From Gammaproteobacteria bacterium (GTDB lineage Bacteria; Pseudomonadota; Gammaproteobacteria; Steroidobacterales; Steroidobacteraceae): DNA of 64,000 nt. Below the pieces are notes generated by a model. It saw nothing but the letters and a program-made list of their open reading frames with translations, had not been told where the DNA came from and ran no database searches. The position numbers and the translations under genes are program-made. Shown piece after piece: positions 1 through 38,074 of the stretch. Within the stretch, counting starts at the first letter, position 1. Every line of letters starts with the position of its first letter. The stretch is taken from positions 6,783 through 70,782 of the forward strand of contig JADZCS010000246.1 in NCBI GenBank assembly GCA_020851435.1, read 5' to 3'.

Positions 1-865
1 GCCGCTCGGCGACTATGCCGCGATACCGGTGGTCCGGGTCCTCGAGTGTCGCGCCGACAAGCGCGTCGTGCTGGTCGAGCAGTTCATCCCCACCGTGCTC
101 AATGCGCACGTTGCCTCACGCCTCAAGTCGTTCGTGAGCGAGCTGCGTGGCCTCCTGCACCAGCGCGGCGAGGAGCTGTCGGGCCGGGTAAGCGCGGCGG
201 GGCAGGGTTCATCGGAACTCTCCAACTTCCTCATGCTGCAGGCGATCAACCGCTACGAGCCGCTGATCGCGCACTGGGCGACCTCCAGCCACCTGCACCC
301 GGAGGACCTCTTCCAGGCGCTGGTCCAGATCGGGGGCGAGTTCCTGACCTTCACCGGCGACAACAAGCGCTGTCCCGAGTTTCCCCCGTACCGCCACGAC
401 CGGCTGCGCGAGACGTTCGAGCCGGTTTTCGCCGCGCTGCGCCGCTCGTTCACTGCCGTGCTGGTCGAGGCGGCCACTCCTATCCAGATCATCGCCAGCA
501 AGAGCCGCTACGGTTTCAGCTCGGCGATGGTTGCCGAGCGCACGCTGCTGGAGGCAGGCACGTTCGTGCTCGCGGTCAAGGCCGACATGCCGGCCGAGGA
601 AGTGCGACGGGTCTTCCCACAACAGACCAAGGTCGGTCCGGGCAACCTCATCGTGCGGCTGGTCGAGTCGCAGATGCCTGGCATCCCGCTGCAGCCGCTG
701 CCCGTGGCGCCGCGGCAGATCCCTTATCACGCCGGTTACACCTACTTCGAACTCGACCGCAACGGCGAGCTGGCGAGGGCGGCCATCGCGGCGGGTGGTT
801 TCGGTATGCACGTGGGTGGGCAGTTCCCGGGACTCAAGATCGAAATGTGGGGAATCAGGGGTTAG
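1..865 (+). CDS. tssK: T6SS baseplate protein TssK (ImpJ/VasE family), 5'-truncated by the window edge
   Basis: Frame 2 is open from the window start to TAG 863-865; the listed ORF 29..865 is only the part after the first in-window Met. The sequence resembles the C-terminal half of TssK as I know it. It lies directly upstream of tssL-tssM, the canonical tssK-L-M order. Confidence 0.7.
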   Translation, partial: PLGDYAAIPVVRVLECRADKRVVLVEQFIPTVLNAHVASRLKSFVSELRGLLHQRGEELSGRVSAAGQGSSELSNFLMLQAINRYEPLIAHWATSSHLHPEDLFQALVQIGGEFLTFTGDNKRCPEFPPYRHDRLRETFEPVFAALRRSFTAVLVEAATPIQIIASKSRYGFSSAMVAERTLLEAGTFVLAVKADMPAEEVRRVFPQQTKVGPGNLIVRLVESQMPGIPLQPLPVAPRQIPYHAGYTYFELDRNGELARAAIAAGGFGMHVGGQFPGLKIEMWGIRG

Positions 866-868: not shown

Positions 869-2266
869 GTGAGCACCGACGATCCTTCAGGCGGCGATCG
901 CACAGTATTCAAGCCCATGCCGGGAGGGCGCCGAGGCGCTGCGGCACCGCCGCCCGCCGGCATGCCTCCCGCTTCCCCGGCGATGCCCCCGCCCATGGCG
1001 CCGGCGCCGGTTGCTGCGCCTGAAGCCGCGGCGCCTGCTGCGGCCCCGCGCCAGCAGTCTGCGCCTCCTGTCGCACAGCCTGACGACCCGAAGGCCGCGA
1101 TCGCGGCCATTTCGCGCGGCGCCGCCAACCCGATTCTGGCGGCTGCGACCCCGCTGCTGGTGCTCGCGAGCAATCTGCGCGGCCTGCCGCGGCACGTCGA
1201 TCCTGCCGGGCTCTATCGCGAGACGATGGACCAGATCCGTGCCTTCGAGGAAAAGTCCAAGGCGGCGGGCGCCCAGCCCGAGACCGTGCTGGCGGCACGC
1301 TATGCGCTGTGCTCCACCATCGACGAAGCCGTGCTGTCCACGCCCTGGGGCACGTCTAGCGGCTGGTCCGGCCAGACGCTGCTGGTGGCCTTTCACAAGG
1401 AGGCCTGGGGCGGCGAGAAGTTCTTCCTGATCCTCGAGCGCCTGCTCGAGGACACGGCCCGCAACGCGGACCTGCTCGAGTTGCTTTACGTATGCCTCGC
1501 CCTGGGTTTCCAGGGCAAGTACGGCATCCAGGCAGAAGGACGGTCGGCGTTGCTGGAAGTGCAGCACGACCTGTACCGCCGCCTGCAGGCCGCGCGCAAC
1601 CGCACGATCGGTGCGGAATTGTCGCCGCGCTGGAAGGGCGTGGAGGACCGGCGCAATGCGCTGGTCCGATACGTGCCGCTGTGGGTGGTGGCCGCCATCG
1701 TGCTGGCCATCATCGTCTCCGCGTACATCGGCCTGCGCGTGTCCCTGTCCTCGAAGGCCGAGGGAGTCCATGCGGCGCTGGTCGAGTTCGGTCGCGAAGC
1801 GCCGGCGGTACCGAGCGCTCCGCCCCCGAACTGGCAGCGCCTCAAGGAACTCTTGGCACCCGAGGAGCAGCAGGGCCTGCTGCGCGTCGAGGAAAGGGCC
1901 GACAGCGCCGTCGTCATCCTGCAGGGTGAGGGCTGGTTCGCGTCGGGTAGCGACCAGGTCGCCGAGGGGCGCAAGCCGGTGCTCGAAAGGGTCACCGCTG
2001 CGCTCAACGAGGTACAGGGCAGCGTCGAAATCGTGGGTCACACCGACGAGGTGCCGGTGAAGTCGCTGAAGTTTGCCGACAACTACGAGTTGTCCAAGGC
2101 TCGCGCCGAAAGCGTCTTCGGCTGGATATCGCTGTCGATCAACAACCCGGGGTGCTGCATGCGCGACGGCGTAGGGCCGAGCAGGCCGATTGCGCCGCCA
2201 CCGTTCGATGCCGCCAAGCGCGCACAGAACCGTCGCGTCGAGATCGTCGTACGGGCGGGGGGCTGA
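869..2266 (+). CDS. tssL: T6SS membrane-complex protein TssL (DotU family) with a C-terminal OmpA/MotB-type peptidoglycan-binding extension
   Basis: GTG start 4 nt after the tssK stop. DotU-like core (LLELLYVCLALGFQGKYG). One TM helix (YVPLWVVAAIVLAIIVSAYIGL). OmpA-like C-terminus (VEIVGHTDEVP...LSKARAESV...NRRVEIVV). Pro/Ala-rich N-terminal tail containing GGDRTVFKPMPGGRR. Confidence 0.9.
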   Translation: MSTDDPSGGDRTVFKPMPGGRRGAAAPPPAGMPPASPAMPPPMAPAPVAAPEAAAPAAAPRQQSAPPVAQPDDPKAAIAAISRGAANPILAAATPLLVLASNLRGLPRHVDPAGLYRETMDQIRAFEEKSKAAGAQPETVLAARYALCSTIDEAVLSTPWGTSSGWSGQTLLVAFHKEAWGGEKFFLILERLLEDTARNADLLELLYVCLALGFQGKYGIQAEGRSALLEVQHDLYRRLQAARNRTIGAELSPRWKGVEDRRNALVRYVPLWVVAAIVLAIIVSAYIGLRVSLSSKAEGVHAALVEFGREAPAVPSAPPPNWQRLKELLAPEEQQGLLRVEERADSAVVILQGEGWFASGSDQVAEGRKPVLERVTAALNEVQGSVEIVGHTDEVPVKSLKFADNYELSKARAESVFGWISLSINNPGCCMRDGVGPSRPIAPPPFDAAKRAQNRRVEIVVRAGG

Positions 2267-2269: not shown

Positions 2270-5200
2270 ATGAAAGGTCTGATCTCCTTCCTCAAGCAGC
2301 GCTGGTTCCTCGAGTTGCTCGGGCTGTTGCTGCTGTCGCTCATCGTTTGGTTCGCAGGCCCGTACCTGGCGTTCGCCGATTTCCGGCCGCTCGACAGCGT
2401 GGTCGAGCGCCTGGTCACGATCCTGGTACTGGTGCTGCTGTGGGGCGGCCTGTACATGATCCGGCAGATCCGCTCGCAGAAGGCGTCCAACGCGATCGCC
2501 GCCGACATGGCGGCGCAGCCTTCCGGCGCCACTGCGGGACGCAGTGGCGACAGCGCGGACGTGTCCGATCTCAAGCACCGCTTCCAGGAATCGGTGGCGC
2601 TGCTGCAGAAGCAGGGCGGCAAGGACAAGAACCTCTACAGCCTGCCCTGGTACATCATCATCGGGCCTCCCGGGTCCGGCAAGACGACCGCGCTGATCAA
2701 CTCGGGCCTGCAGTTCCCGGTCTCGCAGCGTTTCGGCGAAGCCGCCATCCGCGGCGTCGGCGGCACGCGCAACTGCGACTGGTGGTTCACGGACGAGGCG
2801 ATCCTGCTCGACACCGCTGGACGCTACGTCACGCAGGACAGCGACCAGTCGGCCGACAGCGCCGAGTGGACCTCGTTCCTGCAGTTGTTGCGCAAGCACC
2901 GTCGGCGCCGGCCCATCAACGGTGCCCTCGTGACCATGAGCTTCGCGGACCTCGTCCTGCTGAGCCCACAGGAGCGGGCCCGACACGTCGCGGCCGTGCG
3001 CGCCCGCCTCGAGGAACTGCAGGCGCAACTGCGCATCAGCTTCCCCGTGTATTTCCTGATCACCAAGGCCGACCTCATCGCCGGCTTCACCGAGTTCTTC
3101 GACGACCTCGGCCAGGAGGACCGGCAGCAGGTCTGGGGCATCACCTTCCCGCACGACCCGAAACGCAAGCAGGCGCGCTCGCCTGCCGAGGATTTCGGCA
3201 CGGAGTTCGAGGCCCTGCTGGGCCGCTTGCAGGAACGCCTCTGGACGCGCCTGGACCAGGAGCGCGACCCCAAGCGCCGTTCGCTGGTTTTCGGCTTCCC
3301 CCAGCAGTTCGCTTCGGTACGTCAGCCGCTGCAGGAATTCCTGCAGGACGTGTTCGGCTCCAGCCGGTTCGACCAGAAGGTCAACCTGCGCGGCGTTTAT
3401 TTCACCTCGGGAACCCAGGAAGGAACCCCGATCGACCGGCTGCTCGGTGCCGTGGCACGTACCTTCGGCCTCGAGGGGCGTGTGCTGCCCCAGGCCCAGA
3501 TCAAGGGCCGCAGCTATTTCATCCACGACCTGCTGCGCAAGGTGGCGTTCGCGGAGTCTGGTCTCGCCGGCGTCGATCGCCGTTACGAGATCCAGAAGCT
3601 TCTGCTGACCAACTTCGCCTACATCGCCTCGCTGGTGCTGGGCGTGCTGCTGGTCGGTGGCATGTGGAACAGCTACCGGCTCAACTCCGCCTACCTCGAC
3701 CAGGTGTCGGCGCGCATCGCGGAGTTCAAGGCGGGAGCGCCGGCGGGCAGCGAACTCACCGCGATTGCGGACCGGCTGGGCGCCTTCCGCACCATCGTCG
3801 GCGAGGCCGAGCAGTACAACGAGGACCGTCCCTGGTCGCGGCGCTTCGGGCTGTTCCAGGGCAACTCGGTCGGCGGCGCGGTACGCGATGCCTACTACCG
3901 GCAGGTCAACTCGCAGGTGGTTCCCGCCGTCGCGAGCGCGCTCGAACAGCGCATCCAGTCGCTGGCGGGCGATCCCGAACGCCTCTACGAGTACCTGAAG
4001 GCCTACCTGATGCTGGGCGAACCTCAGCACCTGGACAGGGCGCATCTCGATTTCGTGGCCAACTACGAGCTGTCGGCCGGTGGTTCGCCGGCGGCGCGCG
4101 ACCTCACCTCGCATTTCCGCGAGTTGCTCGCGGATGACGGCGCGCTGCGGCCGGTGGCGATGAATCGCGGACTCGTCGATGCGGCACGCACCAACCTGCA
4201 GACGGCAACCCTGCCGAACCTGGTTTACAGCCGCCTGCGGACGCTGTACGCGGGCGACCGCGAGCGCGCCGTGCGGCTCGACGAGGCGGGTGGCCTCGGA
4301 GTCGAGCGGGTGCTGCAGCGGCGCAGCGGCAAGAAGCTCTCCGAGCCGGTAGCGGCGCTGTACACCAAGCCGGTGTTCGAGGAAGTCGCGCTCAAGGACT
4401 CGACCGCGCTGCTCGCCGAGTTCCAGAAGGAATCCTGGGTGCTGGGTGACGACAGCGTGCTGACCCGCATGGGCAACACGTCCGAGGTCGTCGACCAGGT
4501 GCTGCGCATCTACGAGGACGACTACATCGCACAGTGGCAGGCGGTCCTCGCCGATCTCGCGCTGGCGCCGACGGGCACCCAGGAGCAGTTGCTGGAATCC
4601 CTGCGCATCCTGTCCAGCGACTCCTCGCCGCTCAAGGGCGTGCTGAAGCTGGTGGCCAAGAACACCAACTTCGGCGAGGGCGTGAGTCCGGGAGCCGCGG
4701 GCCAGGCGCTCGACAAGCTGGAGAAGGCTGGCGAGAAGGCCGCGACAGCGGCGGCCAGCTCGGCGTCAGGCCGTCTCGGCTCGCTGTTCGGCGCGGCACC
4801 CGCACCCGGCGCGGCGCCGCAGGCCGCCAAGCCTGGCAAGCGCATCACCGAGCAGTTCGCGGCGATCGCCCAGCTCGTGGGTGGCGACGGACCTGCTCCC
4901 ATCGATGCCACGCTGAAGTTGCTCGGCGAGATGTACACCGAGCTCGAGAGCACGGGCAGCGGCCTTGGCCAGCAGAGCGCGGTCCAGGCGCTGAGCCAGG
5001 CCGGCGGGAGCCCGAAGGCACGGCAGCTGCGGGACGAGGCATCACGCCTGCCTGCGCCGCTCGGGGCGATGTTCGGGCAGTTGGGAGGTGGCGGCAGCGC
5101 CATGGCCATGTCCGGCGCACGCACGGAACTGGCCGCGCTGTATCGCGAGATGGTGTATGGCGAATGCCGGCAGGTGGTGAACGGGCGCTATCCGTTCGAC

Positions 5201-5812
5201 CGCAACTCGACGCAGGACGTGCCGATGGCGGACTTCGCGCGTTTCTTCGGCACTGGCGGCACGCTCGACAACTTCTTCAAGCAGCAGCTCGCGCCGCTGG
5301 TCGACACGACCCAGGCGCGCTGGCGCTGGAAGTCCCGCGATGGAGCCAGCGTGGAATTGCCGCAGTCGCTGCTGGATCATTTCCAGCAGGGCGCGAGGAT
5401 CCGCGATGCGTTCTTCGCCGGCGGCGGGGCGCAGCCGTCGGTGCGGTTCACGCTGGTGCCCGACTTCATGGACGCCAACTACACGCGCATGTTGCTGGAG
5501 GTCGATGGCGAACAGCTCGATTACCGTCACGGACCCGTGCGCACACTCAACCTGACCTGGCCGAAGGCAGACTTCGGCCGCGTCACGGGTTCGCTCGAAG
5601 GGCCTGACGGCAGCAAGCAGGTGTTGTCGGCGGAAGGGCCGTGGGCGTTGTTCCGCGCACTCGACCGCGCACAGCTGAAGGCCGAGAGCGGCACTCGCTA
5701 CTCCTTCGTGCTGGGCGGCGGCGCCGCCCGGATCCGGCTGGAGGCTTCGAGCCTGCGCAATCCCTTCGATATGAAAGTGGTGCAGGGCTTCCGCTGCATC
5801 GACGGCGGTTGA
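2270..5812 (+). CDS. tssM: T6SS membrane-complex protein TssM (IcmF family)
   Basis: 1180 aa. N-terminal TM helices, Walker A GPPGSGKTT, a third TM near aa 455 (FAYIASLVLGVLLVGGMW) and a long periplasmic C-terminal region. Position after tssL is canonical. Confidence 0.93.
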   Translation: MKGLISFLKQRWFLELLGLLLLSLIVWFAGPYLAFADFRPLDSVVERLVTILVLVLLWGGLYMIRQIRSQKASNAIAADMAAQPSGATAGRSGDSADVSDLKHRFQESVALLQKQGGKDKNLYSLPWYIIIGPPGSGKTTALINSGLQFPVSQRFGEAAIRGVGGTRNCDWWFTDEAILLDTAGRYVTQDSDQSADSAEWTSFLQLLRKHRRRRPINGALVTMSFADLVLLSPQERARHVAAVRARLEELQAQLRISFPVYFLITKADLIAGFTEFFDDLGQEDRQQVWGITFPHDPKRKQARSPAEDFGTEFEALLGRLQERLWTRLDQERDPKRRSLVFGFPQQFASVRQPLQEFLQDVFGSSRFDQKVNLRGVYFTSGTQEGTPIDRLLGAVARTFGLEGRVLPQAQIKGRSYFIHDLLRKVAFAESGLAGVDRRYEIQKLLLTNFAYIASLVLGVLLVGGMWNSYRLNSAYLDQVSARIAEFKAGAPAGSELTAIADRLGAFRTIVGEAEQYNEDRPWSRRFGLFQGNSVGGAVRDAYYRQVNSQVVPAVASALEQRIQSLAGDPERLYEYLKAYLMLGEPQHLDRAHLDFVANYELSAGGSPAARDLTSHFRELLADDGALRPVAMNRGLVDAARTNLQTATLPNLVYSRLRTLYAGDRERAVRLDEAGGLGVERVLQRRSGKKLSEPVAALYTKPVFEEVALKDSTALLAEFQKESWVLGDDSVLTRMGNTSEVVDQVLRIYEDDYIAQWQAVLADLALAPTGTQEQLLESLRILSSDSSPLKGVLKLVAKNTNFGEGVSPGAAGQALDKLEKAGEKAATAAASSASGRLGSLFGAAPAPGAAPQAAKPGKRITEQFAAIAQLVGGDGPAPIDATLKLLGEMYTELESTGSGLGQQSAVQALSQAGGSPKARQLRDEASRLPAPLGAMFGQLGGGGSAMAMSGARTELAALYREMVYGECRQVVNGRYPFDRNSTQDVPMADFARFFGTGGTLDNFFKQQLAPLVDTTQARWRWKSRDGASVELPQSLLDHFQQGARIRDAFFAGGGAQPSVRFTLVPDFMDANYTRMLLEVDGEQLDYRHGPVRTLNLTWPKADFGRVTGSLEGPDGSKQVLSAEGPWALFRALDRAQLKAESGTRYSFVLGGGAARIRLEASSLRNPFDMKVVQGFRCIDGG

Positions 5813-5826
5813 GACAGGACGCCCCG

Positions 5827-6537
5827 GTGCCGGCAGGATTCTTCGGCAAGGTTCCCTGCGTTGGCGACTTCGTCAAGCGCAGGCTTGCGCCCGACTTCGT
5901 CGCGGCCTGGGACGACTGGCTGCAGCGCGGCATGCACGCCGGGCGCGAGCAGGTTGGCGCCGGGTGGCACGACCTGTTCCTGACGAGCCCGGTCTGGCGT
6001 TTCGCGGTGGATCCGGGCATCGCCGGCAGCGACGCGGCGTGCGGGGTGATGGTTCCGTCGATGGACCGTGTCGGGCGCTTGTTTCCGCTGACGATTGCGC
6101 TGGCCGTGCCGCAGGGCCGCGCCACGGGACTCATAACTACTGCGACAGGCTGGCTGGCCGCGGCGGAGGCGGAGGCCATCGCCGTCGTCACTGGCGATGT
6201 TGCGGACCTCGAGTCCTTCGATGCGCGGGTCGCAGGGCTGGCGGATACCGTGTCCGCGACGTCATGGGAGGCGCCGACCGCGTGGCAGGCTGGCGACGGC
6301 TGGTTCATGCCGATCGACGAGCAGGCCGGGCCTTCCTCGGCCTGGCAGTCGCTTGCGATTTCGGCCCTCGGTGGCGGCAAGCCTGGGGTCGTGTTCTGGA
6401 CGGCCGGCTCGGACCTCGTGGTGCCGGGTGTATTCGTATCCGAGTCGCTGCCCGCGGGCGACCATTTTCGCGTACTTCTCGACGGCGTTGGCGCACCGGT
6501 TGCCGTGCGCCAGCCGGACCCTGAGCTGGGAGTCTGA
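5827..6537 (+). CDS. tagF: T6SS post-translational regulator TagF (ImpM/DUF2094 family)
   Basis: In-frame GTG at 5827, 15 nt after the tssM stop, gives M-PAGFFGKVPCVGDFVKRRL, the TagF N-terminal signature (G-x-F-G-K-x-P-x-x-GDF). The listed ORF start 5641 would overlap tssM by 170 nt. Confidence 0.8.
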   Translation: MPAGFFGKVPCVGDFVKRRLAPDFVAAWDDWLQRGMHAGREQVGAGWHDLFLTSPVWRFAVDPGIAGSDAACGVMVPSMDRVGRLFPLTIALAVPQGRATGLITTATGWLAAAEAEAIAVVTGDVADLESFDARVAGLADTVSATSWEAPTAWQAGDGWFMPIDEQAGPSSAWQSLAISALGGGKPGVVFWTAGSDLVVPGVFVSESLPAGDHFRVLLDGVGAPVAVRQPDPELGV

Positions 6538-6538: not shown

Positions 6539-7342
6539 GTGTCCACTGTAGAACGAAGCAACGGCGGGGTTCGCTGGCTGTCCGCAAGCCGATCCGAAGT
6601 CGGCAATGTGCGCAAGCTCAATGAGGATGCGTGCCTGGATCTCGGGGGCAGCGGGCTCTGGGTCGTCGCGGACGGCATGGGCGGGCATCATGCCGGCGAC
6701 TATGCGAGCCGGACGATCGTCGAGACCCTCGCCGGCGTGCAGCCGCGAACGCGTCCCAGCGAGTTCATCGAGGACATCGAAGACCGGCTGCTGCGCGTGA
6801 ACCACGACCTGCACGTGCGCTCCACCACTGGCGACACCCCGTCGCTGACCGGCAGCACGGTCGTAGCGCTGGCGGCATTCGATCGCTTCGGGGTCTGCAT
6901 CTGGGCCGGCGACAGCAGGGTCTATCGCCTGCGCGACGGGCGCTTCGAACAGGTCACCCGCGATCACAGCGAAGTCCAGGAGATGGTCGACCGCGGCCAG
7001 ATCACGGCGGCCGAGGCCGCCACCGCCAGCAACGCCAACATCATTACGCGCGCCGTGGGCGGCACCAGCGACCTGCACCCCGAGATGTGCCTGACCGACC
7101 TCCGTGACGGAGACCGCTACCTGCTCTGCAGTGACGGCCTGTACAAGGACATCAGCGATGCGGAGCTGGCGTCCGACCTTCGCACGGCGACGACGCCGCG
7201 CGAGGCCTGCGATGCACTGCTCACGCGCGCGCTCGCGGGGCCGTGTTCCGACAACGTGACGACCATTGTCGTGTTCATAGTCGGCGCCGACGATGAATTC
7301 GAACAGACCGGACAATACAAAGCTGAGTTCCCCGCCGCATGA
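6539..7342 (+). CDS. pppA: PP2C-family Ser/Thr phosphatase (PppA-like)
   Basis: In-frame GTG at 6539, 1 nt after the tagF stop. PP2C motifs VRKLNEDA, VVADGMGGHHAGD, LLCSDGL and SDNVTTIVV. About 267 aa. Its stop overlaps the kinase start (ATGA at 7339-7342). Confidence 0.88.
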   Translation: MSTVERSNGGVRWLSASRSEVGNVRKLNEDACLDLGGSGLWVVADGMGGHHAGDYASRTIVETLAGVQPRTRPSEFIEDIEDRLLRVNHDLHVRSTTGDTPSLTGSTVVALAAFDRFGVCIWAGDSRVYRLRDGRFEQVTRDHSEVQEMVDRGQITAAEAATASNANIITRAVGGTSDLHPEMCLTDLRDGDRYLLCSDGLYKDISDAELASDLRTATTPREACDALLTRALAGPCSDNVTTIVVFIVGADDEFEQTGQYKAEFPAA

Positions 7343-10300
7343 GCGCACCGACGCCCGTCGACTTCCGTTCCGCCCTCGAGACCTACATCGCGGGCCACCT
7401 GAGCATTTCGCAGCTTGAGGCTGCGCTGGTCAACGCACTCCGCGCCGAGCCGCACATGGAGGCTGCGCATCACGGCCTGGTAGCGGCCTATGGCCGCGTC
7501 GGGCGTCTGCCTGCGGACGCGGTGGAACACCTGTCGGGCGTATTCGCCGCACAGGCATGGAAGGCGGCGCCCGCAGGGTCCACGCCGCCGCCGCCGCCGC
7601 AGGCGCCGGCTGACAACGACCGCACAGCATTTCGCGGCGCGCCCAGCACGCCACGCGTGCCGCCGCCGCCGGCTCCGCCGGCTCCGCCGGCAGCGCCGCA
7701 GCCACCGGCGGTGGATAACGATCGAACGGCCTTTCGCGGCGCGCCCAGCATGCCGCGGACCCCGACGACCCCGGCCGCTCCCACTGGCCCGAACATGGCG
7801 GGGTACACCGGGTCGGCCCAGCCGCCCTATGCCCAGACAGGCTCGGTAACCGGCGGCTTCACGTCGGGTCAGACGACCGGCGGCAACATGACCGGCTCTG
7901 TTACCGGCTCGGTGACCGGGGCAACCGGTGCGACCGGCACGGGCGGCACGTCCAGCTGGGCCGACATCCAGCGGACGGGCGGCGGATCGCCGATGGGCGG
8001 CGCGCCGCTGGTGGTCGGGAGCGTGCTCAAGGAGCGCTTCGTCCTCGAGTCGATCCTCGGCCGTGGCGGCATGGGCACCGTGTTCAAGGCTCGCGACCTC
8101 CGCAAGGAGGAAGCGATGGATCGCAACCCGCACGTTGCGATCAAGGTTCTCAACGAGGACTTCAAGCAGCATCCCGAGGCGCTGAAGGCTCTGCAGCGCG
8201 AGTCCCGCAAGTCGCAGGAACTCGCGCACCCCAACATCCTGTCGGTGTTCGACTTCGACCGCGACGGCGCCAACGTCTACGTGGTCATGGAACTGCTGGA
8301 TGGCGAGTCCCTCGAGAAGGTGATCAAGCGCCACGAGAACGTCGGGCTCGAGCACAAGGAAGCCTTCAGGATCATCCGCGACCTGGGCAGGGGCCTGTCC
8401 TATGCCCACCAGCGCAACATCATTCACTCCGACTTCAAGCCCTCGAACTGCTTCACGACGAAGGCTGGGGCCATCAAGGTCTTCGACTTCGGCATCGCGC
8501 GGGCGGCCAAGCACACGGGGCCGACCACCGACACGCAGCAGACGGTATTCGACGCGGGTTCGCTGGGCGCGCTGACCTTTGCCTACGCAACGCCGGAGAT
8601 GTTCGACGGCAAGGACCCTGACCAGCGCGACGACCTCTATGCCCTGGGCATCGTCGCCTACGAATTGCTGACCGGCCGCCACCCCTACAACCGCAAGTCC
8701 GCGCCCGAGGCGCGCGACCTGAAGATGAAGCCGAAGCCCGTGCCCGGGCTCACTCGGCGGCAGACGCGCGCGCTGGAGCGTGCGCTCGCGTTCACCCGCG
8801 ACGAACGGCAGAAGGACGTCGACACCTTCGTCGACGAGCTCATGCCGAAGGCGCTGAACAAGACCGTGATCGGCATCAGTGCCGGCGCGGCGGTGCTGAT
8901 TGCCGCGGTCGCAGCCCCGCAGCTCTGGTCGATGTGGAACGACCGGCGCATCAACGCCGTGGCGCAGGACATCAAGAGAGGCGATCCCGCGATCATCGAT
9001 GCGCGCATGAAGGAGTTCGACAGCTATTCGCCCGAGGAGCAGCAGAAGCTCCTGGCGTCCAAGGAAGTCTCCGACGCGCTGTCGAAGTACTTCGAGGAAC
9101 GCATCGTCGCGCTCATCGACACGACCAAGCCCGACTTCGACTTCACGGCCGCTGCGGCGCTGGCCACGATGGCCCTGAAGGTGAACCCGGACTCGGCGCG
9201 CTATAACGAGCTGAAGGCCAGGGTGGAGGAGGGCCGCAACCAGGCGATCAACGCGTTCAACGCCGCGATCGACGACCAGTTGCAGAAGGGTGTGCTGGTC
9301 TCCGCCGACGGCCGTGGGGGGGTGGCGGGCGCGCTCGAAAAGCTGCGTCGCGTGAACCCGGAGCACCCGCGCCTGAAGGACGCCCAGATCGTCGACGCGT
9401 TCGCCGCCAAGGCGAGCGCCGCGCTGGAACGCGGCGACGTCGGTGCGACCAACGCCCTCATCGACGCGGGCCTCAAGTACGCCACCGCCGGCAGCGCGGC
9501 GCGCACGGCGCTCGACAACCTGCGCGACCAGTTGAAGTCGCGTCAGTCCGAACTTGAGACGGCCTCACAGGTCGCCAAGATCGAGGAGCAGCTGCGTCCC
9601 CTGCTGACGGACAGCGCGACGCTCGAGTCCTTCGCCCAGGAGCGCGACCGCATCCTGACGCTGCGCTCCGCCAAGCCCGACAGCCCGATCCTGCCGCAGG
9701 GCCAGCAGCGCCTCGCCTCGCTGGTGCAGAAGCGCGTCGCGGATCTCGGCGCTGCGCGCAGTTTCGCCGACGCGCAGCAGGTGCTCGACCAGTTCGCGGA
9801 CCTGCTCCCCCGTGATTTCGTCGCTGCCCAGCGCAGCCAGGTCGAGCAGGCACAGGCCGCGTACACCGAAAGGGTGGGCTCGACCCTGAATGCCCTGGCG
9901 AAGGCCGTGCAGGCGGGCAACCTCGAGGGCGCCGGCCCCGGCACGGCGGCCAGCCTGCTCGTGGCCCTCGAGAAGGCCGGCGGGACGCCGGCCCAGGTAG
10001 CCTCGTCGCGCGATCTCATCGCGCAGGGCTACGTCGCGAAGTCGCAGCAGGCCCGCAATCGCCGCGCGTTCGACGAAGCACGGAAGATGGTGGATGCCGG
10101 CGCGGCGCTGAAGCCTTCGGCCAAGGTGCTCGACCTCCTGCAGGACGAACGTGGCCAGATCACGGCGACCGAGCGCGGCATGGTCCAGCAGGAGCGGACC
10201 GCGGAGATCCAGCAGCTGCGCGGCGGTCTCGACAAGGTACTCGCGGCGAGCCAGATCACGATATCCGACGCGGAGGCGGCGCTGCAGGCGATCGTCAAGC

Positions 10301-12246
10301 TCGAGGGACGCGGCGTTCGTGATGCTGCCCTCGGCGGCGCCCGCAACAAGCTGATCGCCAAGCTGACCTCCGAAGCGGCGCGGCTCGACGCCAGCGGCGC
10401 GACCACGGAGGCGGCCGCCTTCGCCGAGTCCGCGCGGGCACTGTTCCCCGATTCGGCCGTGTTGCAGAAGTCCGCCGCGAGCCTCAAGCAGAAGGCTTCG
10501 TCGGCCCAGGCAGCCGCCTCGCGCAACCAGCAACTCGCTGCGGCGCGCGCTGACCTCGATAAGTCGCTGGCTGCCGCGCGTTTCGACGACGCCTGGGACA
10601 AGCAGCTGCAGCTGGGCGTCGCCCGGCTCAAGGCGCTGGTTCCCGCGGGTGACCCGCAGGTGCTGGCGGCGAGCGAGAAGGTCGCGCGCGTCTACCTCGC
10701 GCGTGCAGGGGCGTTGCGGCAGGCCGAGAAGTTCGTCGAGGCCGAGAAGATGATCGAGAAGGCCCGGGGCTACTCGCCCGCGATGCCGGGCCTGGATGCC
10801 GAGGCGAAGCAGATTGCCACGCAGAAGCAGGCGTTCGCGGCCAAGGCAGAAGCGGAACGTTCGGCCGGCGCGGTCGCGCTGCTCAAGCAGCGCGTGCTCG
10901 ACAAGGCCCGTGGCAACGAGGTGGTCGAGGCTCGCAAGCTGCTGGCCGAGTTCACCGCCAAGTACGGCAATGACCCGAAGTATTCGGGCTTCATCACATC
11001 CGAGGGTCCGCTGGCCATCGGCCAGGCGCTCGAGCGCTCGGCCGCGCGCTTTGCCGCGGCGGGCGACTTCAGGCAGGCGATCACCTACGCACAGCAGGCA
11101 TCCGAGGCCGCGCCGAAGGGCGACAAGAACACTGCCGAGGCGGTCCGCCTGTTCGGCCAGTTGTCGTCGTTCTCCCAGACGCTGGACCAGGGCATTCGCT
11201 GGCAACCGGACCGGGTGCGGCCATTGCTGGCTTCGCTCGAGAGCCGTTACCCGGCCGCGTTCGGGGGCATCCGCACGAAGCTGCAGGAGCGCGCTCAGGC
11301 CGGTATTTCCCGTCGTCCGGCCGCCGAGCAGGAGGCCTTGCGCCGGCTCGTACAGGAAACCTTCAATCCGGAGGCCGCACGGGAGACTGCGCGGCCAGCG
11401 CCGGTGAAGCCCGCGACCCCGGCGCCAAGCGCTCCCGTGGTGGCGCCGCCGCCAACCGGGCCGGCCACTGGCGCGGGGCCATCCGTGCCGTCGCAGACCG
11501 TCCCGGCTCCTGGAACGCCGGCCGGCGGGGCGCCGCCGGCGGCGGGACCGGGTGTCGTCGCTGGCGGCGCACCTGCAACCGGCGTTGCGCCGTCGCCGAC
11601 CACGGGCGGCACTGGTGGCACCACGCGCACGGGCGGCTGCCAGGTCGAGCGCGCGGGTGCCGGCACTCGCAGCCTGTGCTCGGATGCCTGGACCGGCGGC
11701 AAGGGCCCGTCGCTCATGGTCATTCCGGCCGGCGGCGGATCTGGCAGGCCTTTCGCCATGACGCGTTACGAGGTCAGGATCGACGATGTGCGCGCGTTCT
11801 GCGCCGAAGCGGGCGGGTGTCCGGCACTGGGCGCGGACGGCAAGCTGCCGGTCAGCACTTTCGGCGTCAAGGATGCGGAGCGCTTCGCGGAGTGGCTGCG
11901 CGGCAAGACGGGCGAGAGCTATCGCCTCCCCACCGATGCGGAGTGGACGCACGCGGCCAAGGCCACCGGCGACGGCACCGACGACGATGCCTGGTGCATC
12001 GTCCGCGTCGGCGGCGTCACCAAGGGCGAGGTGGTCGCGAGCGCGCAGAACGGCAAGCCGAACGCCTGGGGTCTCAGCAATATGATGGGCAACGTCCAGG
12101 AATGGGCGCGCTCCGGAGGCAGTTGGGTCGCGAAGGGCGGGTCGTTCAACGATCGCCTGGCCGACTGCCGAGCCGACACGACCAAGCCGCACAGCGGCCA
12201 GGCCGACGGCGCCACAGGGTTCCGGTTGGTCCGCGAAATTCGTTGA
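7339..12246 (+). CDS. Membrane Ser/Thr protein kinase (PpkA-like) with a long helical periplasmic region and a C-terminal FGE-sulfatase (TagR-like) domain
   Basis: Hanks kinase motifs: LGRGGMGTVFKA, VAIKVL, HSDFKPSN, DFGIA (about nt 8030-8840). One TM (VIGISAGAAVLIAAVAAPQLW, about nt 8860-8930). About 800 aa of Ala/Gln/Lys-rich helical sequence, then a Pro/Gly linker. The C-terminus (about nt 11700-12243) has FGE-sulfatase hallmarks (RPFAMTRYEVR..., YRLPTDAEWTHAAK, GNVQEWA, KGGSF, GFRLVREI). The N-terminal tail carries two DNDRTAFRGAPS repeats. Confidence 0.88.
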   Translation: MSAPTPVDFRSALETYIAGHLSISQLEAALVNALRAEPHMEAAHHGLVAAYGRVGRLPADAVEHLSGVFAAQAWKAAPAGSTPPPPPQAPADNDRTAFRGAPSTPRVPPPPAPPAPPAAPQPPAVDNDRTAFRGAPSMPRTPTTPAAPTGPNMAGYTGSAQPPYAQTGSVTGGFTSGQTTGGNMTGSVTGSVTGATGATGTGGTSSWADIQRTGGGSPMGGAPLVVGSVLKERFVLESILGRGGMGTVFKARDLRKEEAMDRNPHVAIKVLNEDFKQHPEALKALQRESRKSQELAHPNILSVFDFDRDGANVYVVMELLDGESLEKVIKRHENVGLEHKEAFRIIRDLGRGLSYAHQRNIIHSDFKPSNCFTTKAGAIKVFDFGIARAAKHTGPTTDTQQTVFDAGSLGALTFAYATPEMFDGKDPDQRDDLYALGIVAYELLTGRHPYNRKSAPEARDLKMKPKPVPGLTRRQTRALERALAFTRDERQKDVDTFVDELMPKALNKTVIGISAGAAVLIAAVAAPQLWSMWNDRRINAVAQDIKRGDPAIIDARMKEFDSYSPEEQQKLLASKEVSDALSKYFEERIVALIDTTKPDFDFTAAAALATMALKVNPDSARYNELKARVEEGRNQAINAFNAAIDDQLQKGVLVSADGRGGVAGALEKLRRVNPEHPRLKDAQIVDAFAAKASAALERGDVGATNALIDAGLKYATAGSAARTALDNLRDQLKSRQSELETASQVAKIEEQLRPLLTDSATLESFAQERDRILTLRSAKPDSPILPQGQQRLASLVQKRVADLGAARSFADAQQVLDQFADLLPRDFVAAQRSQVEQAQAAYTERVGSTLNALAKAVQAGNLEGAGPGTAASLLVALEKAGGTPAQVASSRDLIAQGYVAKSQQARNRRAFDEARKMVDAGAALKPSAKVLDLLQDERGQITATERGMVQQERTAEIQQLRGGLDKVLAASQITISDAEAALQAIVKLEGRGVRDAALGGARNKLIAKLTSEAARLDASGATTEAAAFAESARALFPDSAVLQKSAASLKQKASSAQAAASRNQQLAAARADLDKSLAAARFDDAWDKQLQLGVARLKALVPAGDPQVLAASEKVARVYLARAGALRQAEKFVEAEKMIEKARGYSPAMPGLDAEAKQIATQKQAFAAKAEAERSAGAVALLKQRVLDKARGNEVVEARKLLAEFTAKYGNDPKYSGFITSEGPLAIGQALERSAARFAAAGDFRQAITYAQQASEAAPKGDKNTAEAVRLFGQLSSFSQTLDQGIRWQPDRVRPLLASLESRYPAAFGGIRTKLQERAQAGISRRPAAEQEALRRLVQETFNPEAARETARPAPVKPATPAPSAPVVAPPPTGPATGAGPSVPSQTVPAPGTPAGGAPPAAGPGVVAGGAPATGVAPSPTTGGTGGTTRTGGCQVERAGAGTRSLCSDAWTGGKGPSLMVIPAGGGSGRPFAMTRYEVRIDDVRAFCAEAGGCPALGADGKLPVSTFGVKDAERFAEWLRGKTGESYRLPTDAEWTHAAKATGDGTDDDAWCIVRVGGVTKGEVVASAQNGKPNAWGLSNMMGNVQEWARSGGSWVAKGGSFNDRLADCRADTTKPHSGQADGATGFRLVREIR

Positions 12247-12259: not shown

Positions 12260-14161
12260 ATGATCGAAGCCGAAGCGAACGAGTTGCGGGGCCTGTGTCA
12301 GGACCACTATCACGGCCTGCTGCCGCGAGAGGTCTATCGCGCGCGCCGCGCAAAACTCATCGACGGGCTGATCGGCATGCGGCCCCCCAACGAGGACACC
12401 ACGCGCCCGCAGCACGCGGCGAAGCCGCCCCAGGCGTCGGCGCCTGCAGTTGGGCCCAGCACGCACCCAGGCACTCCCGTGCCGCCCGCCGCCCCGGCCA
12501 CGCCACGTCCTGCGGAGGCCGTGCCTGCGCCGGCGCCCGTGGCCGCTCCTCCTGCGGCGTCTGACGCCCGCACGACCTTCGGCGCGCGCCGCTCGCCGCC
12601 TGCCGCGCCGGCTCCGGTCGAGGCAGCGCCGGCCACGGCCGTTCCCAAGGCTTCACCAGCCGCAGCAGCGGCGCCCGTCTCGGCGGGCAAGGGTGGCAAG
12701 ACCCCGCTCGTGATGGGATTGGCTGCCGTTGCTGTGCTTGGCATCGCCGCGGCGGTGCTGATGATGCGCGGCGGAACGCCGGATGGCGGCGAAGCGCAGT
12801 CGACTGAGGCGGCCGCTCTCGCGGGAGGCGAGGCGCCGCAGGGCGAAGACGAGCCGCGTCGGCTGGCACGCGAGTTCCTGACAGCCAACGACTGGAGCGA
12901 TCCGGCGGTCCGCAAGCTTGCGGGAGACTGGAACACGCTCGACGAAGCTGCGCGCCGCAGCGCGTCGCTCGCGCCCTGGTTCGCCACCCTGCAGGCGAGT
13001 GTCCAGGAAGCGATCATCGGCCGGCAGCGCACCCAGCTGAAGTTCGGCGAGGACCCGGTCGATCCGCAGGATCCGATCTATGTCCTTGCGTCGGCCCTGG
13101 CAATCGATATCGCACCGTTGACCGAAGCAGCGCGCGGGCCCGCGGTGGCCGGGACGGCGCGTGCACAGGAAGCGGTTGCCTCGCCGACCGCCGCTGCACC
13201 CGTGGCGGCTGCCAGCCCCGTGCCTGCTGCGCCGAAGCCTGCCACGCCGGCGGCGGAAGCCGCTTCCGCCGGACGCTCAACCCCGGCGAGCCCGCCGGCC
13301 AAGCCGCAGGTTGCAGGCCCCACCGCGGCGAAGGCCGGTACCGCGTCGCAGCCCCCGGCAGCCGCCGCTGCGTCGGCGGCGACGACCGTGGCCGCTGCCG
13401 CAGCCGCTGCGTCAGCGAGGCCCTGCACGCGCGAACGTCTGCAGACGCGCGATCGTTCCTGCTTCGACCTCATGGCGAGCGGCGAGCAGGGGCCGGCGAT
13501 GATGCTGTTGCCGGGCGGCAGCTTCAGCATGGGTTCAGAGGCACCTGACGAGGCGCCAGTACACGACGTGCGTGTCGGGGACCCGTTCGCCCTGTCGGTG
13601 TTCGAGGTCTCGGTCGGCGAGATGAAGCTGTTCTGCGCGCGCAGCGGCAAGCCCTGCCCGGCGATGTCCGGCGGCGACGACCTGCCGGCCACCAACGTGT
13701 CCTGGTCGCTCGCGCGCGATTACGCGGCCTGGCTGTCGAGCGTGACCGGCCATCGCTATCGCCTGCCCAGCGAGGCCGAGTGGGAGTACGCGGCGCGCGC
13801 AGGCACGCGAACGGCCTATCCCACCGACGAGGGCGACAAGATCACGGTGCCCGACGCGATTTTCAGCGATCGACAGAAATTGTCGGCGCCGGTCGCAGGC
13901 AAGGCGGGCAACGCAAATCGCTACAAGTTGCGCCACATGCTCGGAAACGTGAGAGAGTGGGTCGCTGACGCTTGGAATGAGTCTCATGCCGCTGCACCCA
14001 CGGATGGGAGCGCGCGTGAGCGGGGGACGGGGACGGCGAAGGTCGTCAAGGGTGGGTCGTTCGCTGACGGCATGGACAAGGTTCGTCCGGCCGCGCGCGA
14101 GCGCCTCGAGGCGTCATCCGGCGATCGGTTCACGGGCTTCCGTGTACTGCGCGAGATTTAG
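12260..14161 (+). CDS. Membrane-anchored FGE-sulfatase-domain protein (TagR-like paralogue)
   Basis: SD GGAG lies 8 nt upstream. Short cytoplasmic N-terminus plus a Pro/Ala-rich tail (contains SDARTTFGARRS). One TM (PLVMGLAAVAVLGIAAAVLMM). The C-terminal domain (about nt 13500-14158) has FSMGS..., VSWSLARDYAAWLS, YRLPSEAEWEYAARAG, GNVREWV, VKGGSF and GFRVLREI, matching FGE-sulfatase/SUMF1-type folds. Confidence 0.85.
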   Translation: MIEAEANELRGLCQDHYHGLLPREVYRARRAKLIDGLIGMRPPNEDTTRPQHAAKPPQASAPAVGPSTHPGTPVPPAAPATPRPAEAVPAPAPVAAPPAASDARTTFGARRSPPAAPAPVEAAPATAVPKASPAAAAAPVSAGKGGKTPLVMGLAAVAVLGIAAAVLMMRGGTPDGGEAQSTEAAALAGGEAPQGEDEPRRLAREFLTANDWSDPAVRKLAGDWNTLDEAARRSASLAPWFATLQASVQEAIIGRQRTQLKFGEDPVDPQDPIYVLASALAIDIAPLTEAARGPAVAGTARAQEAVASPTAAAPVAAASPVPAAPKPATPAAEAASAGRSTPASPPAKPQVAGPTAAKAGTASQPPAAAAASAATTVAAAAAAASARPCTRERLQTRDRSCFDLMASGEQGPAMMLLPGGSFSMGSEAPDEAPVHDVRVGDPFALSVFEVSVGEMKLFCARSGKPCPAMSGGDDLPATNVSWSLARDYAAWLSSVTGHRYRLPSEAEWEYAARAGTRTAYPTDEGDKITVPDAIFSDRQKLSAPVAGKAGNANRYKLRHMLGNVREWVADAWNESHAAAPTDGSARERGTGTAKVVKGGSFADGMDKVRPAARERLEASSGDRFTGFRVLREI

Positions 14162-14319: not shown

Positions 14320-14420
14320 CGTTTAGGTATCAACGAATGGAACGTCGCCCTCGTGGGGTTGCCGCGCCCGTTTCGGGCCAGGGCAAGGGTGTCGACGTTG
14401 CGTCATGGAGGGGAATTCGA

Positions 14421-16205
14421 GTGCACTCCCAGAATATCCGCCCGATCGGGCGCGCATTGCTGTCCGCCGCGATTGCCACGCTGTGCTGCGTGCCGGTCCA
14501 GTCCGCCTGGACGCAAGCCCAGGTCCAGGTTCCGCCCGGGGCTACCCCCGGCGCAAACGTGCCGCGTGATACCGAGCGCATGACTGCGCCGCCGGAGGCC
14601 GCGCCGGACATCTTTTCCGTGCCGCGCAAGCTCGACCGGCCGGTAGGCGCGGACGAGGGGCCGCGCGTACGTGTGCAGCGCTTCGAACTGTCGGGCGCCG
14701 TGGATCGCGCCGATGCCGGGATCAAGGTCGCCGACATCACGGCCCTGCTGGAAAAGCAGCGCGCCGCGCAGCCCGCCGAAGGCTTCACCATCGTGCAGCT
14801 CGAAGGTGTCGCCGAGGAGGTCACCAAGTACTACCGCAGCCACGGCCTGCTTCTGGCCCAGGCATTCGTGCCCGTCCAGGAAGTCTCGGGTGGAGTGGTC
14901 AAGGTGGGCGTGCTCGAGGGCAAGCTCGGCGACGTGACGGTCGAGGGCAACAAGCGCTACAGCACGCGCTCGATCCAGGATGCCTTCGCGCAGATCGTCG
15001 GTGAGCCGGTCAACCAGCTCAGCGCCGAGAAGGCGCTGTTCACGCTCAACGACTATCCGGGCCTGGACGTCTACGGCGTGTTCCAGCCGGGCAAGCAGAT
15101 AGGTTCCACGACGCTCGCCATCCAGGTGCGGCGCGAGGACCCGATGGAGTATTACGCCGCGGCCGACAACTTCGGCCCCGACTCGACCGGCCAGTACCGC
15201 GTTCGTGCAGGCCTGCTGGCCAATTCGCCATTCGGTTTCGGCGACCAGCTCAACGCCTACGCGATCTACAGCCTCGACCCGTCGGACAGCAACGCCGACA
15301 GCCTCTTTGGTGGCATCGAGTACAACTTCCCGATGCCGCGCACCTACGCGCGCTACGCACTGCGCTATTCGACCAGCGACTACAACGTCGGCGGCGAGTT
15401 CAGCGACTTCTCCGGCAAGAGCTACATCGGCGAGGTCGAGGGTAACTTCCTGCTGAAGCGCACGCGCACCAATACCAGCCGCCTGTACATCACTGGATCG
15501 AAGAAGAAGGGCGAGGTTTCGGCCAGCCTCGGATCGACGCAGGAAGACAAAGTCCAGTCGCTGACCGCTCGCTTCGAGAGTTCGATCATCGACACGCGTT
15601 TCCGGGGCGTCAACCGCATCGACTTCGGCTACACGACGGGCGAGGTCACCAACGCAGATCCAGCCGTCAACACACGCTTCAACCTGAGCCCCGGCTTCAC
15701 GCGCTGGAACCTGTCGCTCGAGCGCTGGCAGCGGCTCGGTGAGGCTGCAGCCCTGGTCATCAATGCCCGAGGCCAGGCCAGCGGCGACCGGCTGACGTCA
15801 TTCGACCAGGTCGCGATCGGCGGGCCCGAGAACGTTCGCGGCTACCGGCCGGCGACGTTCTTTGCCGACGAAGCGGCCACTGCATCGGCCGAGTTCATCC
15901 TCGAAGCGCCCGGGTTCCACGACCGCAAGGCCTGGAAGGACTACACCTGGGGCCAGGTACTGAAGTTCCACGTATTCGCCGACTACGCATACGCGAAGGT
16001 CAACGGCGTGCCGAGCGGCAGCGCAACGCTGACGCGCGACGAGGACTTCTCCAGCTTCGGCGGCGGAGTCTCTTTCGAACTGCCAGGAACGGCAAGCGCG
16101 CGCCTCGACGTGGCGCGCCCCTTCAACACGGATGATGAAATCCTCGACGGCGTGGCCGTGAAGAGCGAGACGCAGTTCTTCTTCACGGTTGGATACAGTT
16201 TCTGA
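14421..16205 (+). CDS. Two-partner-secretion outer-membrane transporter (FhaC/ShlB/HecB, Omp85 superfamily, POTRA + beta-barrel)
   Basis: GTG at 14421 is preceded by GGAGGGG and gives a signal peptide (HSQNIRPIGRALLSAAIATLCCVPVQSAWTQAQ). POTRA-like region (VRVQRFELSGA...). Omp85 motif GPENVRGYRP. C-terminal beta-barrel ending ...FFFTVGYSF. The ORF-track start 14337 is an upstream alternative. Confidence 0.85.
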   Translation: MHSQNIRPIGRALLSAAIATLCCVPVQSAWTQAQVQVPPGATPGANVPRDTERMTAPPEAAPDIFSVPRKLDRPVGADEGPRVRVQRFELSGAVDRADAGIKVADITALLEKQRAAQPAEGFTIVQLEGVAEEVTKYYRSHGLLLAQAFVPVQEVSGGVVKVGVLEGKLGDVTVEGNKRYSTRSIQDAFAQIVGEPVNQLSAEKALFTLNDYPGLDVYGVFQPGKQIGSTTLAIQVRREDPMEYYAAADNFGPDSTGQYRVRAGLLANSPFGFGDQLNAYAIYSLDPSDSNADSLFGGIEYNFPMPRTYARYALRYSTSDYNVGGEFSDFSGKSYIGEVEGNFLLKRTRTNTSRLYITGSKKKGEVSASLGSTQEDKVQSLTARFESSIIDTRFRGVNRIDFGYTTGEVTNADPAVNTRFNLSPGFTRWNLSLERWQRLGEAAALVINARGQASGDRLTSFDQVAIGGPENVRGYRPATFFADEAATASAEFILEAPGFHDRKAWKDYTWGQVLKFHVFADYAYAKVNGVPSGSATLTRDEDFSSFGGGVSFELPGTASARLDVARPFNTDDEILDGVAVKSETQFFFTVGYSF

Positions 16206-27268: not shown

Positions 27269-27301
27269 TCGGCGCCCACCAACGGACTGGGAGGGAAGGG
27301 A

Positions 27302-28348: not shown

Positions 28349-28381
28349 GTTCGGTATTGATACCACCAGGAGGAGCCATCC

Positions 28382-28906
28382 GTGGCCAAGCAAAGCAGTC
28401 AGAAGTTCATCGCGCGGAATCGCGCGCCGCGTGTGCAGATCGAGTACGACGTCGAGGTCTTCGGGTCCCAGAAGAAGGTGCAGCTGCCCTTCGTCATGGG
28501 CGTCATGGCCGACCTTTCTGGCAAGAATGCCGAATTGCAGCCCGATTTCGCCGACCGCAAGTTCCTCGAGGTCGACGTCGACAACTTCGACGACCGCCTC
28601 AAGTCGATGAAGCCCCGCGTGCAGTTCACGGTCCCGAACACCCTGACGGGTGAGGGCAACATCCCGGTGGACATCACTTTCGAGAGTATGGACGACTTCT
28701 CGCCGGCGGCAGTCGCCCGCAAGGTCGAGGCCCTGTCGAAGCTGCTCGAGTCGCGCCAGCAGCTCGCGAATCTCGTGACGTTCATGGATGGCAAGGCGGG
28801 CGCCGAGAAGCTCGTGCAGGACCTCCTGAACGACCCGGCCCGCCTGCAGGCGGTTGTATCGCAGTCGCACGGCTCTGGCGGCGGCTCGTCGGACGAACAG
28901 GCTTAA
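28382..28906 (+). CDS. tssB: T6SS contractile sheath small subunit TssB (VipA)
   Basis: GTG start with AGGAGG upstream. Typical sequence KFIARNRAPRVQIEYDVE...LPFVMGVMADLSGK. Confidence 0.95.
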   Translation: MAKQSSQKFIARNRAPRVQIEYDVEVFGSQKKVQLPFVMGVMADLSGKNAELQPDFADRKFLEVDVDNFDDRLKSMKPRVQFTVPNTLTGEGNIPVDITFESMDDFSPAAVARKVEALSKLLESRQQLANLVTFMDGKAGAEKLVQDLLNDPARLQAVVSQSHGSGGGSSDEQA

Positions 28907-28919
28907 GGAGCAGGCAGTC

Positions 28920-30407: not shown

Positions 30408-30421
30408 CCCGGGAAAGCACA

Positions 30422-30456
30422 GGGCGCTCGCCTTCGGGCGGGCGCCCCTCGATTTT
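30422..30456 (+). terminator. Hairpin with short T-run between tssC and hcp (partial terminator or processing element)
   Basis: GGGCGCTCGCC (30422-30432), TTCG loop, GGCGGGCGCCC (30437-30447): 11 bp including one G-U pair. It is followed by CTCGATTTTA. Confidence 0.45.
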
Positions 30457-30482
30457 AGAACTTACTTGAAGGAGATCTGCAC

Positions 30483-30965: not shown

Positions 30966-30982
30966 TCCGGGTCCGACGGTCC

Positions 30983-31025: not shown

Positions 31026-31046
31026 GGTCGGGTCACTGGAGCAATC

Positions 31047-32386: not shown

Positions 32387-32387
32387 C

Positions 32388-35338: not shown

Positions 35339-38071
<2,733 letters not shown>

Positions 38072-38074
38072 ACG

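Follow-up and report, generated by a model that had tools for sequence, protein, structure and literature searches.

The window analyzed here is a 64,000-nucleotide stretch (68% G+C) of contig JADZCS010000246.1, from a metagenome-assembled gammaproteobacterium of the family Steroidobacteraceae, and its left end holds a type VI secretion system (T6SS) module, as identified by Pfam. Two proteins of this module, the long form of TssL and a PpkA/TagE-like membrane Ser/Thr kinase, share a short linear motif in their disordered cytoplasmic tails. The motif, here called the Thr box, has the form D-[RK]-T-x-Φ-[RK]-(x)-P. The genes of the module lie head to tail on the forward strand. The window begins inside tssK, whose 3' part occupies 29..865 (T6SS_VasE, E = 2.7e-94) and which extends past the window start. 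It is followed by tssL (869..2266), which encodes a DotU domain (3.4e-66), an OmpA-like domain and one transmembrane segment at residues 268-290 predicted from hydropathy, and then by tssM (2270..5812; IcmF-related_N, IcmF-related and IcmF_C). A short form of tagF (5809..6537; TagF_N, 1.1e-40) probably starts at TTG 5809 or GTG 5827, the mechanical open reading frame (ORF) start being 5641. The PP2C phosphatase gene pppA (6539..7342; PP2C_2, 1.5e-11; PP2C, 4.4e-09) has a GTG start with GGGAG upstream and abuts the kinase gene, as in the T6SS threonine phosphorylation pathway. The kinase gene (7339..12246; Pkinase, 3.6e-40, and FGE-sulfatase) is followed by a gene for an FGE-only, "TagR-like" membrane protein (12260..14161; FGE-sulfatase, 3.3e-43), which by hydropathy consists of a cytoplasmic tail, a transmembrane segment and a periplasmic FGE-sulfatase domain.

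The kinase comprises 1,635 residues, with a transmembrane segment at 510-528 (hydropathy) and a C-terminal FGE-sulfatase domain in the periplasm. Its catalytic residues are intact (K269 of VAIK, D365 of HSD, N370, and D383 of DFG), and the catalytic loop HSDFKPSN is encoded at 8425-8448 (residues 363-370). All 120 homologues surveyed have HSD instead of HRD, so the kinase-FGE family is of the non-RD type; thousands of homologues share the kinase-plus-FGE architecture. An AlphaFold2 model built on a 55-sequence alignment contains a confident helical domain at residues 5-80 and the kinase fold at residues 220-505. Residues 82-218, which include both Thr boxes, have predicted local distance difference test (pLDDT) values below 50 and correspond to a disordered linker of about 140 residues that adjoins the catalytic domain. 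The helical domain preceding this linker (7351-7578, about 75 residues) has pLDDT values of 93-97 and no Pfam match.

Both kinase boxes read DNDRTAFRGAPS. They are encoded at 7612..7647 and 7714..7749 on the forward strand, with the Thr codons at 7624-7626 (T96) and 7726-7728 (T130), and they are 34 residues apart in Pro-rich surroundings. An earlier note, made by reading the sequence alone, had placed these copies, codons, spacing and context as they are found. The two boxes sit in a diverged 102-nucleotide duplication, whose flanks are 74% identical over 91 nucleotides. Within the 12-codon core there are five differences between the copies, all of them synonymous.

The TssL box, DRTVFKPMPGGRR, is encoded at 896..934 (forward strand; T12 codon 902-904), close to the start of an ORF (869-2266) that opens with MSTDDPSGGDRTVFKPMPGGRRG. 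The fourth site, SDARTTFGARRS, lies at 12560..12595 on the same strand, in the tail of the FGE-only protein, and its T105 is a weak candidate. The pattern D-x(0,1)-R-T-x-F has exactly four matches in the six frames of the window, at T12, T96, T130 and T105. When the 18,852 residues of likely proteins are shuffled, 0.26 matches are expected, and none of 2,000 shuffles attained four. The form D-x-R-T-x-F proposed in the earlier note describes the FGE-only copy alone, because the other three sites are D-R-T-x-F. Similarly, GGDRTVFKP and the T12 codon of TssL are as the note described them, but GGDRTVFKP spans 890-916 rather than 896-916, and the FGE-only site begins at 12560 rather than 12563. 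A fifth site candidate at 38691 (ARTRLRAP) was dropped because its frame is non-coding.

TssL, the kinase and the FGE-only protein each have one hydrophobic segment by hydropathy, and all four sites are N-terminal of it. The disordered cytoplasmic context that had been proposed for the sites is supported for the TssL and kinase copies.

The TssL box is widely conserved. In every one of the 14 loci that hold a relative of the window cluster, the N-terminus of TssL contains D-x-T-[IV]-[LFM]-[RK]-P-x-P-G. A broader, exhaustive survey of representatives of 50%-identity clusters added 149 diverse TssL proteins of the long form; two of these have tails shorter than 15 residues, which leaves 147. The form D-[RK]-T-[VI]-Φ-[RK]-P-x-P-G-G occurs in the tail before the DotU domain in 110 of these 147, and most TssL proteins that lack the exact box have something close to it, for example SHTVIRPRPGG. 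Far from being peculiar to one lineage, the box is therefore a widespread feature of TssL. Some of the surveyed proteins have two to four boxes in tandem, and two to five are present in a set of TssL proteins comprising P0363, P0389 and P0398 and those encoded at 6641-8116 of locus L033 and 6996-8519 of locus L038; examples are DKTIIRPRPG...DATMVRPRPG...DATVVRPRPG and repeated DPDATxxxP.

The kinase box was surveyed in the best 120 homologues (about 35% identity), 109 of which have a tail longer than 150 residues. One to four copies of [DE]-[KR]-T-x-F-R-x-P precede the kinase domain in 106 of the 109 long-tailed homologues, and the strict core [DE][KR]T.[FLIMVY] occurs 214 times in the tails, versus 3.5 times in shuffled tails. 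In the 55-sequence alignment, T130 is invariant (55/55), and conservation is 90% or more in each of the columns of T96, P102 and P136, within a linker that is otherwise unalignable. The first check proposed in the earlier note was conservation of the motif in orthologues, and this holds for both TssL and the kinase.

The boxes of the two protein families, which are unrelated, are one motif. A scoring matrix trained solely on TssL sites was applied to whole kinases of 1,350-1,700 residues, and the top-scoring Thr falls in the pre-kinase tail in 108 of 109. Under the same matrix, T96 and T130 of the window kinase exceed the 99.9th percentile of background Thr residues. At locus L014 the two are almost alike, with GDRTVMKPPGG in the kinase and GDRTVLRPMPGG in TssL. 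Other, unrelated kinase lineages encoded beside box-bearing TssL in metagenome contigs also hold a copy: DADRTRIVP at L017 and L020, DDDVTIVGRKPGG at L033, whose TssL has DPDATIVAG repeats, and three copies of DRTRIS at L044.

The central residue of the box is almost exclusively Thr. It is Thr in all 198 kinase boxes and in 82 of 88 TssL boxes, among which there is a single Ser. A kinase by itself would accept Ser, whereas FHA domains discriminate phosphothreonine (pThr) from phosphoserine. The retention of Thr without replacement by Ser thus fits the established selectivity of FHA domains.

A second line of comparison comes from Agrobacterium tumefaciens, in which TssL is phosphorylated at T14 in a PpkA-dependent manner and the phosphorylated site binds the FHA domain of Fha with a Kd of 0.5-1.6 mM, whereas the unphosphorylated peptide does not bind (PMC3953482). 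This is the phosphosite that the earlier note had named, correctly, as Thr14 (PMC3953482). The window sequence MSTDDPSGGDRT12VFKPMPGGRR aligns with A. tumefaciens MSTDNPSSWQDLPpT14VVEITEESR, and T12 is the positional counterpart of pT14. Both proteins have a nearly identical opening, MSTD[ND]PS..., followed by D-x(1,2)-T-V-Φ, with the Thr at position 12-16 of the cytoplasmic N-terminus. Both systems also have PpkA, PP2C and Fha (in the case of the window, Fha in its relatives), and the proposed logic, in which the kinase acts on TssL and TssL then docks the FHA domain, is the same. However, the residues after the Thr are acidic in A. tumefaciens (V-V-E-I-T-E-E), and basic and Pro-rich in the window (V-F-K-P-M-P-G-G-R-R). 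In addition, the Agrobacterium kinase is short, soluble and devoid of tail boxes, whereas the window kinase repeats the TssL box. The A. tumefaciens study regarded the TssL site as conserved in Rhizobiaceae only (PMC3953482).

The TagQRST-PpkA-PppA-Fha1 pathway of the Pseudomonas aeruginosa H1-T6SS resembles the window cluster: in both, a Hanks-type kinase of the membrane has its sensor part in the periplasm, a PP2C gene adjoins the kinase gene, TagF is present, and an FGE-sulfatase (COG1262) protein is encoded beside the kinase (compare TagR, PA0071). In P. aeruginosa, TagH binds a phospho-Thr on the autophosphorylated kinase (reviewed in PMC13584744), and the known substrate is T362 of Fha1 rather than TssL. 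The window kinase differs: it is non-RD, its N-terminal four-helix domain is followed by the disordered, box-bearing linker of some 140 residues, and it has a periplasmic FGE domain of its own. Also, P. aeruginosa TagR is a soluble periplasmic protein that acts with TagQ, TagS and TagT, whereas the window protein is membrane-anchored with a cytoplasmic tail, and none of the annotated ORFs of the window resembled tagQST genes.

In Acidovorax citrulli, PpkA is an inner-membrane kinase upstream of Fha, its condensates recruit Fha and the cytoplasmic domain of TssL, and it directly pulls down TssL, TssM and TssJ (PMC12607579). The likeness lies in a membrane PpkA that acts with these membrane-complex proteins and Fha. 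However, no motif was defined there, the phosphosite studied was Fha T640, and the kinase is only distantly related and is compared here by description. The Fha phosphosite of Serratia marcescens has been reported as T438. In mycobacteria, FHA domains read Thr acceptors clustered in disordered stretches beside kinase or transporter domains, as with PknB and GarA or FhaA and with the Rv1747 linker, and multivalency drives clustering. These assemblies involve unrelated proteins, a Gram-positive-type envelope and other motifs (ETTSVFR in GarA), so they are analogous in mechanism only.

The FHA protein that would read the boxes is not encoded in the window. A tblastn search of the 64 kb with four Fha proteins gave a best E of 0.037, in agreement with the earlier note, which had supposed that fha lies upstream of tssK. 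That supposition fits the synteny of loci L013 and L014, which have the same layout as the window and in which fha is just upstream of tssJ-tssK. The window begins inside tssK, and the fha gene of this cluster most likely lies upstream of tssJ-tssK, judging from these relatives. Looking up the exact sequences of TssM and of the kinase, with the aim of reading the DNA upstream, retrieved no record. In the closest relatives, L009-L012, fha is instead found between a long tagF and pppA. The TagF proteins of these closest relatives have 505-551 residues, and the short tagF of the window directly abuts pppA, as in L013 and L014. The Steroidobacter loci L001 and L003 have two fha genes each.

Fha proteins of syntenic relatives have FHA and T6SS_FHA_C domains, and direct reading of their sequences reveals the residues that mark FHA domains able to bind pThr (G-R, S-x-x-H and T-N-G). 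The Fha encoded at 8016-9248 of L012 has one more box of the TssL kind, WDATSMRPRT, within its disordered linker (around residue 165). The segment E-I-K-T-E-F-R-M-P of some Fha proteins was considered as a box and rejected, because its Thr is Asn, Ser or Asp in most homologues.

The FGE-only protein was the third member of the set proposed in the earlier note, and this part of the proposal is not supported in that form. The cytoplasmic tail of the protein is about 148 residues long, its transmembrane segment is at 150-170, and its FGE domain is 31% identical to that of the kinase. Its T105 reaches only the 99.2nd percentile of background Thr residues. The T-x-F is retained in the closest relative, P0242, as AHTQFAVRRP, but is missing from seven of the eight remaining homologues, and P0243 has T-V-F at a non-equivalent place. 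A homology search returned nine other FGE-only proteins, and the conservation of T105 therefore rests on about ten sequences. What is conserved across the family is a Thr island elsewhere in the tail, [DE]-x-[ST]-T-x-P-[RQK], which in the window is E-D-T47-T48-R-P-Q (12392..12412, forward strand), just after an N-terminal helical segment. Its counterparts in L009-L012 and P0242-P0244 include EITQPR, STTLPQR, SVTLPK and GTTQPR. As a candidate for a regulatory site, this island is stronger than the DARTTF site. The T105 copy probably falls outside the set, and its likeness to the box may be due to chance.

The TssL and kinase boxes are predicted to be kinase acceptor sites that, once phosphorylated, dock the FHA domain of Fha; we give this reading a probability of about 0.6. 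The earlier note had suggested a shared set of this kind, and for TssL and the kinase the suggestion is strengthened by conservation, by the invariant Thr, by the disordered cytoplasmic context and by the pT14 counterpart, with the TagR-like copy removed from the set. We infer phosphorylation, FHA binding and an avidity effect at the boxes. We propose that the periplasmic FGE-type domain switches the membrane kinase on, and that the kinase then phosphorylates the box Thr residues, namely T96 and T130 in its own N-terminal linker and T12 near the very start of TssL. The resulting phospho-Thr would be read by TagH/Fha, the T6SS scaffold, through its FHA domain. Because a single pThr-FHA contact is weak, it is proposed that the number of boxes matters: several boxes per kinase dimer, together with one per TssL copy, could concentrate Fha at the membrane complex and thereby trigger assembly. 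The adjacent PP2C phosphatase would reverse the signal.

Several observations weigh against this reading, among them the lack of an fha gene in the window. Of 273 kinase sites, 259 have Arg or Lys at +3, and Arg or Lys is also foremost at this position in TssL. Classical FHA classes prefer Ile, Leu, Val or Asp at pT+3, although this preference varies among FHA domains, and the basic residue, which falls outside the classical preferences, lowers the claim of docking but is compatible with it. The Agrobacterium site, for its part, has Glu at +3. AlphaFold2 confidence has no local rise at the kinase boxes. The Rhizobium etli kinase encoded beside a box-bearing TssL has no obvious box. A metagenome scan with a five-sequence TssL alignment yielded 14 box-bearing TssL genes with Fha, PP2C or kinase in view, but the box-bearing TssL genes of L035 and L040 have 8-10 kb of flank with none of the three. 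Most of the other metagenome contigs are too short for the absence of fha or ppkA to be scored, and the co-occurrence is therefore not decisive. Two partial echoes of the box, by contrast, count in favor of the reading, within limits. One is the activation loop of the window kinase (DTQQTVFDA, 8530..8556, forward strand), which resembles the tail box: T402-x-F404-D405 is invariant in the family, where T-[LV]-F-D frequently follows E-K. This likeness is weak, at the 99.0th percentile of the position-specific scoring matrix, and, because the family is non-RD, it need not reflect autophosphorylation.

The Fha proteins themselves hold the other partial echo. Their T6SS_FHA_C domain has an invariant Thr (99/99) within P-[MLV]-T-x-[IMV]-[RK]-P-V-ENNPLKF, and this Thr resembles the box only partly, with a median near the 95th percentile and the first rank in 22 of 98 proteins. 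It lies about 131-145 residues from the C-terminus, compared with 135 for T362 of P. aeruginosa Fha1, which we take to be 497 residues long. The Agrobacterium-type Fha of L096 lacks the whole ENNPLKF segment, and Fha of this type is reported to lack the phospho-Thr. The invariant Thr may be equivalent to T362, for which two points speak, the distance from the C-terminus and the absence of the segment. No solved structure covers the T6SS_FHA_C domain, and a plasmid tblastn found no Pseudomonas, Serratia or Acidovorax Fha.

Alternately, the box might be a docking motif that works without phosphorylation, its unmodified peptide binding a shared partner such as a substrate-recruitment surface of the kinase, TssM, TssK or TagF, with the Thr kept for its shape. 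Kinase and TssL would in this way be tethered to one common component. In the TssL box, conservation of the Pro and Gly-Gly-Arg-Arg flanks is as strong as that of the Thr, beyond the usual needs of a kinase or FHA site, which also counts against the phosphorylation reading and leaves room for a second, phosphorylation-independent partner. The box-bearing TssL proteins of L035 and L040, with no kinase or Fha in view, would be explained by such a motif, as would the direct pull-down of TssL, TssM and TssJ by A. citrulli PpkA. A steric role, however, would tolerate Val or Ile, and the Thr practically never becomes Ser, Val or Ile. In Agrobacterium, phosphorylation of the homologous Thr is established and the unphosphorylated peptide does not bind Fha, and the window cluster has a dedicated kinase and phosphatase pair, so we consider this explanation unlikely. 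We regard as more improbable still that the kinase copies are pseudosubstrate or decoy sites that mimic the TssL acceptor and occupy the active site or soak up activity, setting a threshold or delay. Such a role would account for the match between the tail boxes and the TssL box, their resemblance to the invariant activation-loop T-[LV]-F-D, their position on a flexible linker next to the catalytic domain and the range in copy number from one to four. However, a classical pseudosubstrate lacks the acceptor residue, which here is invariant, the AlphaFold2 model has no docking of the boxes onto the kinase domain, and the kinase phospho-Thr of P. aeruginosa is bound by the FHA protein (PMC13584744).

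That the recurrence is a functionless accident of Pro/Ala/Arg-rich, low-complexity tails is hardly credible overall. For the FGE-only copy taken alone the idea has some force, since the 99.2nd percentile corresponds to about one expected site per Thr-rich protein and the F is missing from seven of the nine other FGE-only homologues. For the TssL and kinase copies it is refuted by the counts against shuffled sequences, in the window and in the kinase tails alike, by the invariance of T130 and by the exclusively synonymous differences between the cores of the kinase copies. Acceptor and FHA-docking sites are the reading that we favor for TssL and the kinase.

The window holds further genes. Between the kinase module and tssA is a two-partner secretion pair (14337-16205 and 16238-27268), in which a transporter of the ShlB type is joined by TpsA, a protein of 3,676 residues that has a TPS domain; its placement within the T6SS cluster is identical in L009-L014. 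The genes tssA, tssB, tssC, hcp, tagJ, tssE, tssF, tssG and clpV follow at 27269-38071. Directly 3' of clpV, at 38072-40609, there is a 241-residue ORF without a Pfam match, and the opposite strand encodes a TPR-plus-methyltransferase protein. A single ORF at 40693-43266 fuses amino-acid (asparto)kinase and ACT domains to a pyridoxal phosphate-dependent Orn/DAP/Arg decarboxylase domain.

The targets of the T6SS threonine phosphorylation pathway have looked inconsistent from species to species: the target is Fha in Pseudomonas, in Serratia and in Acidovorax, but TssL in Agrobacterium. Moreover, no consensus for acceptor or docking sites has been defined. No description of the Thr box consensus was found in the searchable literature, and searches of literature text for ENNPLKF and DRTVIRP returned nothing relevant. 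What is new here is a general consensus within a known pathway. A wider proposal, which we advance tentatively and at slightly below even odds, is that post-translational T6SS control has a general, hitherto unrecognized currency in the Thr box D-[RK]-T-[VI]-Φ-[RK]-P. The box would lie at the N-terminus of most long-form TssL proteins and be copied, frequently as several tandem repeats, into the disordered tails of several independent T6SS kinase lineages. After phosphorylation, these copies would make up a multivalent array of pThr on which Fha condensates nucleate at the membrane complex.

The case also illustrates that reading raw sequence can reveal short conserved islands in disordered tails that are considered unalignable. 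A Thr-invariant box common to TssL and the kinase revises the view, taken in the only study of TssL phosphorylation, that the TssL site is restricted to Rhizobiaceae, and it indicates precisely which residues could be mutated in many organisms. It points to widespread phosphorylation of the membrane complex, and it provides the recently described PpkA/Fha condensates with a concrete mechanism based on multivalency. If the proposal is correct, phosphorylation of TssL, which so far has been demonstrated in Agrobacterium only, would be the rule rather than the exception.

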